Source: a virus (lineage: Duplodnaviria; Caudoviricetes). From it: a stretch of DNA of 25,671 nucleotides. The stretch lies in the IMG/VR virus record IMGVR_UViG_3300037467_001294, positions 1 through 25,671 of that record. The stretch is one strand, 5' to 3'. A program made the position numbers and the translations under genes. How positions within the stretch are numbered: the first letter of the stretch is position 1; the number at the start of each line of letters is the position of its first letter. This document shows, in pieces, positions 841-8,180 of this stretch. A model generated the notes under the pieces. The model did not search any database. It was not told the DNA's origin and saw nothing but the letters and a program-made list of their open reading frames with translations.

Positions 841-1020
841 GCATGGCTCAGTTTCGGCACAGATATAAGCAGATGTTGCCAATCCGTTCACGGTCTAACT
901 GCATCTATCGATCATTAGAAATCAATAACTTAGATAGGGGCGCTGTCTGACCCGGCCAATCCACCACCTACCACATGTATAGCATCCATCGCGTCTTGGC
1001 TCTTTTTCGGTTCAGTTTCG
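841..1020. other. Putative attP region with arm-type repeats
   Basis: Immediately downstream of int. TCAGTTTCG at 848-856 and 1012-1020; TTTCGGCACAG (852-862) and TTTCGGTTCAG (1005-1015) flank an AT-rich tract (GAAATCAATAACTTAG, 918-933) and a host-gene fragment. Confidence 0.7.
930..989 (-). other. trmFO: Phage-borne replacement 5' end of host trmFO (gid): MDAIHVVGGGLAGS then diverging to DSAPI-stop
   Basis: Translation matches the TrmFO N-terminal FAD-binding motif (IH[IV][IV]GGGLAGSEAAWQ). Similarity stops after GLAGS, at the presumed crossover. Confidence 0.75.
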
Positions 1021-2013
1021 TCATATATCGGCGGCGTCGGCTTGCCAATCAGGGCTGTGGTGACCGTATGTCGCCTCCAGCACCCTGACCGTCATTCCCA
1101 GATAGCCTGCGGCCTGCCAAGGCTGCACTCCGCGCTGCACCATCCACGTCGCGCGAGTGTGGCGCAAGACGTGAGGATGGACCTTTGTCAGCTTGGCGGC
1201 TTTGCATGCTTCCTTCCACGACCTCCAGGGATCACGCTTGATCTGCTGTCCATTGTAGTGGACCACATACTTGACCTTCCCGCCGTCAGCCTCTTTCCAT
1301 CGCTTCAGGAAGTGCTTCAGCTTCCTTGGGAGCCTTATAGGCGGCGTTCTCTTGTTTGCCGTCTCGGATACGCCGGGGGCACGGCGGCGCATCGTACCGG
1401 CCTCTAAATCGATCCATGACCATTCCAGATTTCGCAGCACTCCGGCGCGCGATCCTGTGTGGAGGCCGAGCAGGACAAATCGCTTAAGGTGTTCCGCTCG
1501 CTTCGCGGCCTTGACCAGTCTGGCCGCCTCTGGAACCGTTAGCCATCGATCGCGCGGCTCATTACGTGGCGGCTTCCAGACGCTCGGGACTACGGCCAGC
1601 GGCGTATGCTCCTTGTGCCAGTGCCGGATCGCGGATTGTAACTTTTCTAGATCGGCTCGCGCTGCTGACTGTGTGCGGCTCTTGGCGTAAGCCCGGCAAT
1701 TTGCAGCGGTCACCTCTGCGAGCGTCTTATCGCCCCAAAAGTCTGAAAGATTCGACACGTTGTATTTTGCCGAGCGGGATTTCATGCTCGGAACCCGGTC
1801 CTTCAGGTAGAACAGAAGAATGTCGGCAACCGGCGGGGAATCCGATCTTGGCGGCGTGTATTTGGCCGCGATGTATTTTGCTAGGAGCTTTTCAGCCCAC
1901 TCAAGCTGTGCCTCAGCGCATCCCGTGCGGATGAAACTCGATCCATCGCGAATGGCCCACTGTCGCCGTCTTTTATCGAGATAGAGGCGCGGTCCTGACG
2001 CTCGACGCGGCAT
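1021..2013 (-). CDS. int: Tyrosine recombinase / phage integrase (330 aa)
   Basis: LHTGSR (catalytic R), HPHVLRHTRATW (HxLR), YLG and TYGH (catalytic Y); N-terminal arm-binding-like region. Confidence 0.95.
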   Translation of the reverse strand: MPRRASGPRLYLDKRRRQWAIRDGSSFIRTGCAEAQLEWAEKLLAKYIAAKYTPPRSDSPPVADILLFYLKDRVPSMKSRSAKYNVSNLSDFWGDKTLAEVTAANCRAYAKSRTQSAARADLEKLQSAIRHWHKEHTPLAVVPSVWKPPRNEPRDRWLTVPEAARLVKAAKRAEHLKRFVLLGLHTGSRAGVLRNLEWSWIDLEAGTMRRRAPGVSETANKRTPPIRLPRKLKHFLKRWKEADGGKVKYVVHYNGQQIKRDPWRSWKEACKAAKLTKVHPHVLRHTRATWMVQRGVQPWQAAGYLGMTVRVLEATYGHHSPDWQADAADI

Positions 2014-2192
2014 CGTTCAACCCATTCCCTGACTGCATTTGGTGTCGTGTAGTATTGGCGCCCAAGCTTGTACATCGCGAGTTTCCCGCGCAGGCCGTCC
2101 GCCTTCAAGACGCCCTTGGACAGCCCAAAGTGGCTCGCGGCATCCGCAAGCGTTACAGGATCGTCATCGCGAGTAGGAGCAGCCCGCGTCAT
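1881..2192 (-). CDS. Excisionase-like HTH protein (103 aa)
   Basis: VTLADAASHFGLSKGVLK...GKLAMYKLGRQYYTTPNAVREW resembles a Xis/HTH_17 fold. Directly upstream of and overlapping int. ATG 2192 is coupled to the upstream TGA. Confidence 0.75.
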   Translation of the reverse strand: MTRAAPTRDDDPVTLADAASHFGLSKGVLKADGLRGKLAMYKLGRQYYTTPNAVREWVERCRVERQDRASISIKDGDSGPFAMDRVSSARDALRHSLSGLKSS

Positions 2193-2425
2193 CCAGCGTC
2201 CTCCGAATTGGGAGGGGAGGGGCGCAGTCGGCGAGACTTGGCCTTCTTGTGGTCGTCCAATGCTTGTTTGATAACGCGCCATGGCACCATATCAAGTTCG
2301 ATGCCTTTGCCATCGCGGCGCATGACAACGCACAGGCCTTTTCGATCAGCATAGGCCCATAACTGATCGCTAATATCGAACGGATCGCACGGGTATCCGC
2401 TATTATTGAATGTGCGTCTGCTCAT
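2189..2425 (-). CDS. Hypothetical phage protein (78 aa)
   Basis: ATGA coupling at both ends within the leftward operon. Confidence 0.65.
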   Translation of the reverse strand: MSRRTFNNSGYPCDPFDISDQLWAYADRKGLCVVMRRDGKGIELDMVPWRVIKQALDDHKKAKSRRLRPSPPNSEDAG

Positions 2426-3899: not shown

Positions 3900-5368
3900 G
3901 TCATCCCTTCGATCAGGGCGAGGATGGCGTCGGTTTGCTCTTTTGCCGTTTCGAACACGTATCCGGCGATCTTATCTTCTCGTAAACGCCGCAGAATTAT
4001 TCCTTCTAGGATGTAGGAAAGTTCGTCAAGCACCGCCTCCCGGTCCAGTGAGACGGGGCGGGTGCGGTAAAGTGGCTGTTCTGTCCAACCTTGCTCGCGG
4101 TCGCAGGCTTCTAGTTGCGTGAATTGAAGGTCTCGACCAAATTTCCGATGACGGTGTAGATACGCAACCGCATCCGGTTCTTGTGCGTCCACATAAGTGT
4201 TCCGCGCGTCGCCTGGCCTACCGAAACAGGGGCTGCTTCCGCCGAATGTTGTTACGGACGGTTCTTGTGCGGGGTCTGACGGAGCCCGAGCCGCTGTCAC
4301 CAACAGCTCACTCTCTCCCGAAGGTAGAGAGGACAAACAAGCCCCGTCAGATTTCGTCCCGCCGCCGGGGGCTGCGGATTGGATTGTCGGCAAATCCTCA
4401 TCGAGCAAGTTGCAGCATTTGTCGAACAAGGTTTCTGCCGGGATCGCCGTGAACCACGCGACGTCATCGCAGACGCGGCCATCTACGCAAGCTTGCGCGA
4501 TGTCCCGAATGCCTTGCTTCAACCGTGCAAGCTCCGCCACGTCTGCGCTCGGTGGCGTGGGGGTGGCGGCAGGTTGCACGTTCGGCTTGCCCGCTTCCAT
4601 CCACGCTAAGATGTCATTTTTCATTTCCTGACATACTTGCGGATCATCAAGGGCGGCAGCCAGCCATCGACCGACGTTCTCAGTGGCCTTGCCATCCCTC
4701 GCATTCTCTGCCGGTGCGGTGAGCGCGGCGGGCACAAAGCCTGCGATGGCTTCAATGGCGTTCTGCCAAGTTTCACCGTTAAATTCGGATACATCGTCGA
4801 TGGACGACTGCTCCATGCCGCGACCGGTCAAATAAGCACGAGCCAGCGCCTCCCGCACAGCATCGCTATCTGCCTGGGCCTGTAGGGGTGGGGCGGCGTC
4901 CTTCGTGCGATCATGTTCAATCGCGCTGTCCTCGCTCATTGATCGCCAATCAGGCCAAACACGAGCCATGTTCTTCTGCTGCTTCGCCAGCAAGGCCGGG
5001 AGCAGGTTGGAAGCCTCGCCGCCATGTCGCCAGAAGCCATCCATCGCGAGAATGATGACATCAACCCACTCGGACAGATCATGCGGACTGTCCTCGATCT
5101 CCCGAAGCTCTTTGCGGATATGATCGATGACGCCTTTGGTGCGTAGCGCAGGACCGAAGGTCTGACGCGACCATTCAATCTGACGTTTGAAATACGAAAC
5201 CAGATCACCCCCACCCTCTGCCGGTGCAGCCGCGTCGAGGCGGAGAGCGGTAACGACACGAACGATGAGGTCACGCTCTCTGCCGTGGAAAACAGGCAAC
5301 TTGGCATCCAACTCATCAGCCAGCGCCAGCATCTCGTTCGTCGGGGCGGTTGTCATTGGGCTGTTCAT
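3896..5368 (-). CDS. Mosaic early protein with a DUF550 (MazG-like dATP/dGTP pyrophosphohydrolase) domain (490 aa)
   Basis: RQIEWSRQTFGP...GVIDHIRKELREIE..P.DLSEWVDVIILAMDGFWR...KQQKNMARVWPDWR at about aa 57-155. The rest is short modules joined by Ala/Pro linkers. Confidence 0.85.
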   Translation of the reverse strand: MNSPMTTAPTNEMLALADELDAKLPVFHGRERDLIVRVVTALRLDAAAPAEGGGDLVSYFKRQIEWSRQTFGPALRTKGVIDHIRKELREIEDSPHDLSEWVDVIILAMDGFWRHGGEASNLLPALLAKQQKNMARVWPDWRSMSEDSAIEHDRTKDAAPPLQAQADSDAVREALARAYLTGRGMEQSSIDDVSEFNGETWQNAIEAIAGFVPAALTAPAENARDGKATENVGRWLAAALDDPQVCQEMKNDILAWMEAGKPNVQPAATPTPPSADVAELARLKQGIRDIAQACVDGRVCDDVAWFTAIPAETLFDKCCNLLDEDLPTIQSAAPGGGTKSDGACLSSLPSGESELLVTAARAPSDPAQEPSVTTFGGSSPCFGRPGDARNTYVDAQEPDAVAYLHRHRKFGRDLQFTQLEACDREQGWTEQPLYRTRPVSLDREAVLDELSYILEGIILRRLREDKIAGYVFETAKEQTDAILALIEGMT

Positions 5369-7044: not shown

Positions 7045-7446
7045 TCACTCGCCTCCCGCAGTCTTGAGGGCGGCGCGGGCGTATTTTCGGCATAGTTTGC
7101 GATGATTGGCGTCAGCGGTTTTGTGGTCGTTTGCCGAGAGAAAGTCGATCTCCGAGGTGGAAAATGCCGGGAGTCCGCAGCCGCAGTTGCATTCTCCTTT
7201 GCCAACCTTGAAGACCATAGTTTCAAAGAAGCGATCACAGCCGATTTGTTCTCGCTTGCCTAATTGCTCGCCGTCCCGCCTCGGTCGGTAATCACCCACG
7301 GTCGAGACCAGAAAGTTGCCGACCCTTGTTGTAAGATGATGAAGGCAACGATCAGCGCAAATGAAATGACCGGCCATGCCGAACCATTCCCATTTGCTCT
7401 CTAGAATCGCCGTCCGCGCGCCTGCTGTGGTATGGGTGGGGGTCAT
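7045..7446 (-). CDS. Hypothetical phage protein, Cys/His-rich (133 aa)
   Basis: [13 protein letters not shown] and CNCGCG; abuts neighbours in the operon. Confidence 0.7.
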
Positions 7447-8180
7447 GCGGGCACCGAGACATTGGCAAGCGCCGCCAGAACGCCGTCACGGATTTGCTGG
7501 TACGCTGCCGACCTCGCTGCCGACCACGCTGCCGACCTCGCTGCCGACTCCGCTGCCGACTCCGCTGCCGACTCCGCTGCCGACTCCGCTGCCGACCTCG
7601 CTGCCGACTCCGCTGCCGGCCACGCTGCCGACCTCGCTGCCGACTCCGCTGCCGACTCCGCTGCCGACTCCGCTGCCGACCTCGCTGCCGACCACGCTGC
7701 CGACTCCGCTGCCGGCCACGCTGCCTCGCCGGTTGCGGCCTTATCGTGCAGATCAATAACAGCCAGGACGACCTCAGTTGCCGTACCAGCCGTAGGCAAC
7801 GTCACGCGCAGGATGGCTGCATGGCAACGATGAAGCGCCGCCTGCCAATCGTAATCATCGGGCATGGCATGAAGCGTCTCGGCAAGTTGAACATGCCACT
7901 TGGCACTTTCGCCGTTCGGCAGACCCTCGAATACAGAATCCTGCAATAGCGCGAGCCATTCCGGGTAGCCGTAGTGCATGGCGACTTTGAAATGCTTCTC
8001 GTCCATGTCGGAAACTTCATCCGGTGTTGCATCCGGGAAGATGTGGTGAAGGTGACATCCGACCGAGCAGCCCTTGAAGTTTTCGGCACCTTCTTCGCCA
8101 TATGTGCCACGAAGCAACATATCAGCCTTGAAGTGGGCTACTGACTGCTCAAGCAATTCTGCGCGCTGTTCAGCGTTCAT
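7443..8180 (-). CDS. Hypothetical protein with an AA(E/R/W)(S/P) tetrapeptide repeat (245 aa)
   Basis: N-terminal KGCSVGC...H......[15 protein letters not shown] globular region followed by 18 tetrapeptide repeats; ATGA coupling. Confidence 0.85.
7503..7725. repeat. Coding 12-bp tandem repeat (CGCTGCCGACTC and variants), 18 units plus a partial
   Basis: Units CGCTGCCGACTC / CGCTGCCGACCT / CGCTGCCGACCA / CGCTGCCGGCCA read directly, without spacers. Confidence 0.97.

Follow-up and report, generated by a model that had tools for sequence, protein, structure and literature searches.

A phage attachment site holds a differently coded trmFO start, and close relatives of the phage are integrated in the FAD-loop codons of this host tRNA-modification gene

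Why would a soil phage carry, directly behind its integrase gene, a few codons that read like the start of the host enzyme TrmFO? The window, which is the whole stretch of DNA analyzed here, is a 25.7-kb virus record whose own assembly contains nothing further. On its minus strand (989-930) it encodes an open reading frame of 19 codons plus a stop with a TrmFO-like start, and the ATG lies 31 nt past the integrase stop codon; our translation is the same as that of the 19-residue peptide reported by the original prediction. A degenerate pattern for ten conserved codons has a single match in the window (977-949) and, even with one mismatch allowed, matched none of 100 shuffled sequences, which excludes a chance match. 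We consider it highly probable that this mini-ORF is part of the phage attachment site (attP), that relatives of the phage are integrated in the codons for the FAD-binding loop of trmFO with the phage start fused in frame to the host gene, and that TrmFO likely stays functional with a probable phage promoter. As close relatives are integrated in trmFO with an in-frame start, this phage is predicted to do likewise.

On one side of the mini-ORF, the window contains repressor-like, replication, terminase, portal, and capsid genes. On the other side there is a SLOG-family gene (Table 1), which indicates that phage DNA extends past the core of the attachment site. An ORF resembling this gene, with no Pfam match of its own, is also found inside the attL end of a lysogen, G143. 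A contig from an independent run (X3) covers positions 750 to 1500 without a break. With phage genes on both sides and this unbroken contig, we excluded the possibility that the window is a prophage border (attL or attR), and we interpret it as temperate-phage DNA that is not integrated and has its attP intact. Beside the SLOG gene, contigs of X3, X4, and X5 lack 172 to 177 bases in the stretch from 570 to 749, so this stretch is variable among close relatives. Elsewhere in the window, a 245-aa ORF on the minus strand (7443-8180) has a tract of A-A-[ERW]-S repeats in tandem and matches the unnamed PHROG families 3416 and 8332.

Table 1. Features in and around the attachment site, with positions in the window
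Feature	Position	Strand	Basis or remark
SLOG-family (YspA-like) phage gene	156..611	-	Pfam PF10686, E 1.7e-18; far side of attP
Predicted arm-type sites, P' arm	844..862	-	Second direct-repeat pair, 11 bp apart
IHF-consensus-like site	920..932	+	Sole match to the assumed consensus in the window; next to core
P' arm sequence beyond core	930..948	-	Ends the mini-ORF; would end the orphan host stub once integrated
Putative 7-bp strand-exchange (overlap) region of attP	949..955	-	Last two bases of Ala codon, Gly codon, first two of Ser codon
Replacement 5' end of trmFO	956..989	-	Supplies start codon, beta strand 1, and most of the FAD-binding GxGxxG loop; A/T-ending codons
Predicted integrase arm-type sites, P arm	997..1015	-	Direct-repeat pair, 11 bp apart
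Predicted -10, TATGAC	1020..1025	-	Spans integrase stop codon; 17 nt from -35
Predicted -35, TTGGCA	1043..1048	-	Script scan; inside integrase 3' end; promoter for the replacement start
Tyrosine integrase, 330 aa	1021..2013	-	Pfam PF00589 Phage_integrase, 62 bits (cut-off 27); PHROG phrog_1, E 2e-37
Likely excisionase	1881..2282	-	Weak PHROG excisionase match, E 5e-4; overlaps integrase start; equivalent position in G143 and G001

In the integrase, R189, K221, H281, R284, and Y316, which we take to be the catalytic residues of a tyrosine integrase (R-K-H-x-x-R-Y), are invariant across 40 aligned rows, and so is a Met at the usual position of the second His. NCBIfam gave Xer-type matches only, all below cut-off. 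Integrase loci were collected from viral, genome, and metagenome collections and by whole-genome searches, and the figures for them hold among the matches listed; the compared set comprises 78 distinct loci in which identity is 44% or more and the match extends to the integrase end. Among these listed matches, a TrmFO-like motif lies at most 45 codons past the integrase stop in 9 of 78 loci. Counting loci with readable downstream DNA, it is present in eight of nine with at least 65% integrase identity, compared to 1 of 69 with 44 to 57%. Four of the motif-bearing loci are in the attP form, like the window (L001, L002, L185, and L086), and in the five others (L213, L184, G143, G001, and G002) the motif runs on into host TrmFO. 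In a quick tree, the window and its nine closest loci among the matches listed form one clade of 10 rows (SH-aLRT 100), and the integrase of L213 is 97% identical to that of the window over 154 aa. Inside this clade, L186 has an integrase that is frameshifted near its end and adjoins a different gene (1757-1950) that matches the FlhA-family Pfam FHIPEP at E 0.048, below cut-off. Its position next to a possible flhA may represent a secondary site or a target switch. L086, with a 51% identical integrase, is placed outside the main clade and has its spare trmFO-like start at 3972-4060, which suggests that such a start arose a second time or that att modules were exchanged. Searches for further motif-bearing lysogens found none new in 176 genomes of the G002 genus, in 15 genomes of the G143 genus, or in 401 genomes of the order, and 401 genomes of the family gave one, G143. 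A plasmid search for the integrase resulted in a single match (39%). A DNA pattern scan of viral contigs resulted in six matches, three of which are L001, L002, and L086; the other three were judged unrelated, as they have no nearby integrase.

The phage-type start is in frame with host trmFO in all five integrated relatives, and in four of them the fused gene is full length, as had been predicted for lysogens of close integrase homologues. These four fusions, in G001, G002, G143, and L213, score 638, 655, 690, and 665 bits, respectively, with NF003739 (cut-off 262), and all pass TIGR00137; the fifth, L184, ends at the contig edge after 265 nt. The fused protein of G143 aligns from residue 1 with the Thermus TrmFO structure PDB 3G5Q (E 6e-124). 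Compared with Thermus TrmFO (3G5Q/3G5R/3G5S), it has the loop in place as well as the two conserved cysteine motifs, which we presume to be functionally important. G002 belongs to the Xanthobacteraceae, G001 to the same genus as G002, and G143 to the same family. Judged from the intact reading frame, TrmFO is likely kept functional in lysogens. An attR junction of the window's exact phage was not found in the eight runs compared, and the nearest one is that of L213.

At the other end of the element, all three genomes examined (G001, G143, and G002) have an orphan host trmFO start with G/C-ending codons, and the expected 5' stub at the far prophage end is thus in place. In G001, the stub is located on the same contig and strand as the fusion, 33 kb upstream. 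The 33-kb island of this genome (C52:136771-170150) contains genes for an SNF2 helicase, DUF499/HEPN, an IS21-interrupted DUF1156, and patatin. There is no phage structural Pfam match in 55 ORFs in and around the island, nor a PF03237 terminase in the G001 genome; this non-phage island at trmFO is possibly a defence island. In G001, both host and element have Ala where Ser usually follows the loop. In G143, the stub is on a separate contig, behind a DUF1127 gene, and such a gene is found nearby in 36 of 40 uninterrupted trmFO loci. The host side of this attL matches congeners up to 90%, and phage-like small genes are present on both G143 flanks. The first bases after the G002 stub agree with those in the attP of L185. 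The attP of L002, a free phage, is identical to G143 attR at 68 of 69 bases and to G143 attL at 105 of 106; by this measure, the three are the sites of nearly one phage. In contigs of X6 and X7, from two other studies, the match to the window breaks off at 956 and a host-type stub with G/C coding follows; these attL contigs of related strains have low depths of 3.2 and 4.8. Several runs also have contigs that end at 948 or 919; these ends resembled att branch points but were set aside, since they fit a single-base variant at 918.

Three attL/attR pairs share blocks of 8, 16, and 11 bp, and the intersection of these blocks is the 7 bp at window positions 949 to 955. This narrows the crossover, estimated earlier at 946 to 956, and places it in Ala-Gly-Ser codons, in agreement with the proposal that attB lies in the loop codons of trmFO. 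In native trmFO, an imperfect inverted repeat of 10 bp, formed by the Gly-Gly-Leu and Glu-Ala-Ala codons, surrounds the 7-bp core. Forty native loci were entered, of which 3 were off-motif and 37 were scored; the repeat matches at 7 or more of 10 positions in 31 of the 37, compared to about 1% of 40,687 control positions. Lambda-type integrases use a 7-bp overlap between inverted core sites. The core described here fits such an arrangement, with predicted cleavage positions. P-arm-like repeats follow the integrase stop in most family members, whatever their target. The IHF-like site, called with what we assume to be the IHF consensus, is conserved in L001 and L002, with a near match in L086 and a weak one in L185. 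The direct-repeat pairs, the IHF-like site, and the core give an attP of about 180 bp, and these sequence matches would fit lambda-type recombination with arm sites and IHF. In the mechanism that we propose, strands would be exchanged over exactly 7 bp and integration would need a matching overlap. The host promoter and the original start would be left behind at attL, where the frame would end a few codons past the core, as in the stubs of G143 and G002, in which it stops within six codons. Excision would rejoin native trmFO.

The codons of the replacement are unusual for this GC-rich phage, as the original prediction had pointed out. In the mini-ORF, two of seven third positions are G or C, compared to a fraction of 0.64 to 0.78 in five phage genes of the window, in which ATA accounts for 3 of 128 Ile codons and GTA for 7 of 155 Val codons. 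When host stub and replacement are compared over the seven codons before the core, third positions differ at 6, 6, and 5 of 7 in the three pairs and first or second positions at 3, 1, and 1, so the notion of a conserved peptide on recoded DNA holds; two native trmFO genes differ at a mean of 2.4 third positions over the same length. Ten replacements have G or C at 22 of 70 third positions (16 of 56 if three that are almost identical are counted as one), and native genes have it at 215 of 259. Eight distinct replacements have constant amino acids and varying synonymous bases, also outside the inverted repeat, and both codon families are used for Leu. As the peptide is kept while the DNA varies, selection on the translated product is indicated. 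A generic preference for A/T codons at N termini was rejected, because in four native genes whose starts are just as short, 25 of 28 third positions are G/C. The original prediction also gave the recoding a purpose, namely to limit homology to the core. There is, in our opinion, a slightly better than even chance that the A/T-ending codons instead reflect AT-rich attP DNA that binds recombination proteins, with selection on the peptide only, an explanation that opposes this purpose and not the integration mechanism. The 60 nt upstream of the motif have a G+C content of just 37 to 52%, and the coding stretch sits between the arm sites and the core, where lambda-type phages have their accessory protein sites. 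However, the merged third-position count is below the local 48% (binomial P value of 0.002, overstated because the elements are related), and the stub and its replacement differ at far more third positions than two host genes do.

With the original start left at attL, trmFO in a lysogen would be read from the predicted phage promoter at the integrase stop. A promoter-like score of at least 9/12 was obtained for 7 of 10 trmFO-linked integrases, six of the seven belonging to one subclade, and for none of 64 others. The -35 bases also encode Asp-Trp-Gln. A stricter scan, in which the last T of the -10 is required, found no promoter. RNA runs contain only small shares of the stretch. In L185 (1770-1845), the ATG of the replacement frame overlaps the integrase stop codon, which suggests translational coupling. 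On the attL host sides of L264, L167, and L172, a -10-like hexamer is visible by eye 2 to 7 nt before the native trmFO ATG, with no clear ribosome-binding site. The native trmFO mRNA may be leaderless, unlike that of the phage-supplied start. Could integration into trmFO be real and the fused gene nevertheless silent or poorly expressed, with the spare start only preserving the sequence of the attachment site? The fused start lies just 19 to 48 nt past the integrase stop in the relatives, the -10 is without its last T, and the G001 element scores 6/12. As is generally known, a repressed prophage may leave its xis-int unit untranscribed. In addition, the available text of PMC8409611 reports that dusA expression dropped after a comparable element had integrated. 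We nevertheless regard a silent fusion as improbable: constant amino acids with varying synonymous bases across the eight replacements argue for selection on a translated product, and most alphaproteobacterial promoters analyzed do without that T, which is present in only 30 to 43% of them according to the part of PMC7703639 available to us.

Relatives of this integrase are found at many other targets. By rough patterns, the remaining loci among the matches listed comprise 27 rhodanese-like targets, of which two were confirmed by Pfam, 7 tRNA-Val, 1 tRNA-Pro, 31 other, and 3 that were too short. A sister clade with 45 to 53% identity adjoins the 3' end of an opposite-strand gene with a rhodanese domain, in both attP and integrated forms (L005:2078-2419, L007:3994-4332, and about 25 other loci), and 3'-end repair at another protein-coding target is likely for this clade. 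Further integrase subclades lie beside other protein-coding genes (L188-L192, L202, L204, L210, and L230), and the family appears to switch targets often. Integrases at other loci, which the original prediction had counted against itself, are thus represented in part, by L186 and by the relatives with 44 to 57% identity. Of the nine with at least 65% identity, eight carry the TrmFO-like start, which is fused to trmFO in the five that are integrated. That the mini-ORF matches by chance or is left over from a different GxGxxG flavoprotein, in a phage that integrates at a tRNA gene or other locus, is hardly credible: although the 44 to 57% integrases among the matches listed are mostly at tRNA-Val, tRNA-Pro, the rhodanese gene, or unclassified DNA, and although further flavoproteins in G001 and G002 fit the loop pattern, the shuffles gave no match, each of the five integrated, motif-bearing clade members runs into TrmFO, three have the host stub, and these attR and attL junctions refute it.

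Integration in trmFO leaves a puzzle in the overlap itself. The 7-bp overlap includes two wobble bases and is the same in attL and attR in all three pairs. Among the 401 family genomes searched, just 5 have a trmFO-like site with the version of the window, and the version of G143 is absent from 13 congeners. The commonest host overlap, present in 24 of 37 native loci, is found in 0 of 10 elements. A simple overlap-matching rule does not explain this absence. Either a special subset of hosts is infected, or an overlap that does not match is changed into the phage version. We also considered that the bias might come from the GCCGGC palindrome being avoided, but rejected this effect as too weak (20 seen versus 26.7 expected). 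A more speculative idea, which we consider rather unlikely, is that the start region of the attR promoter overlaps the arm sites, so that occupancy by Int/Xis would set the level of m5U54, and that the two wobble bases would be a synonymous-codon key to the hosts that can be lysogenized. If this were true, the phage would take control of a host tRNA modification.

With these results, trmFO joins the few tRNA-modification genes that serve as integration sites, which in the available part of PMC4482086 include dusA, trmE, rimO, and rluA. An apparently unrelated integrase clade has come to repair its target in the same way, in this case by rebuilding a loop that binds a cofactor. Because the TrmFO start, the ribosome-binding region, and probably the promoter in a lysogen would be phage DNA, an effect of lysogeny on tRNA m5U54 is directly testable. 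The trmFO site is present in 115 of 121 host-family genomes searched, and therefore the integrase with its short attP could provide a landing system that leaves the target undisrupted in soil Xanthobacteraceae. Programs for gene annotation would label the hybrids as ordinary trmFO and overlook the border.

Repair of a target gene at its 5' end has already been published for dusA and prfC; we did not find trmFO as a target in print. A 2020 paper on TIGER reportedly deals with regulated gene integrity. Titles and the beginnings of abstracts did not mention integration at trmFO/gid, and the site may be listed in supplements or island tables. The available part of PMC11073494 is unrelated to trmFO integration, and the texts of PMC13626063, PMC12884075, and PMC11476347 do not contain "trm" or "gid." As other tRNA-modification targets, the available text of PMC4482086 names thdF/mnmE (trmE), rimO, and rluA, and the string "trm" is absent from it. 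The nearest named integrases are those of the Rhizobium phages RHph_Y25 and 16-3, Sinorhizobium phage phi3LM21, and Ochrobactrum phage POI1126, with 34 to 40% full-length identity; fetched loci at this distance mostly adjoin tRNA genes by eye, and none among the matches listed has the loop motif.

Several known elements resemble this phage in part. SGI1-family islands at trmE (mnmE) likewise use a tRNA-modification gene but, according to the parts of PMC4482086 and PMC8409611 that were available, insert at its 3' end, so that no start or promoter needs replacing. The ICE SXT replaces the 5' end of its target prfC (PMC8409611, available part), as the present phages do with trmFO, but SXT is a conjugative element of Gammaproteobacteria, not a phage, and its target is a release-factor gene. 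The closest parallel is the group of dusA-associated prophages and islands, which, as far as the available texts of PMC4482086 and PMC8409611 go, have tyrosine integrases, enter, at its 5' end, the gene for a tRNA-modification flavoenzyme, and supply a new N terminus; a lacZ fusion demonstrated a new promoter in the case of one Vibrio element. The present clade is of the same 5'-repair type, with an in-frame full-length gene at four of five attR sites and the original 5' end orphaned in three of three genomes. The tyrosine integrase, the 5'-end insertion, and the replacement start are shared with the dusA elements, whereas the target is different, as the five integrated clade members sit in trmFO and not at the 5' end of dusA or dusB. 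The dusA elements have a 21-bp semiconserved attL/attR repeat, and the present clade shares 7 to 16 bp in trmFO codons. The DAI integrase lineage is closest to Rci; the present integrase resembles those of rhizobial phages, with best named matches of 40%. A last difference concerns the cofactor. For GidA, a paralogue of TrmFO, the glycines of the dinucleotide-binding motif are needed for FAD binding and tRNA modification (PMC1635325, available part), and the replaced codons belong to this motif. Whereas none of the residues affected by the dusA elements is known to bind flavin or tRNA, as stated in the available part of PMC4482086, the present phages replace 12 to 16 codons and with them most of the loop that binds FAD.
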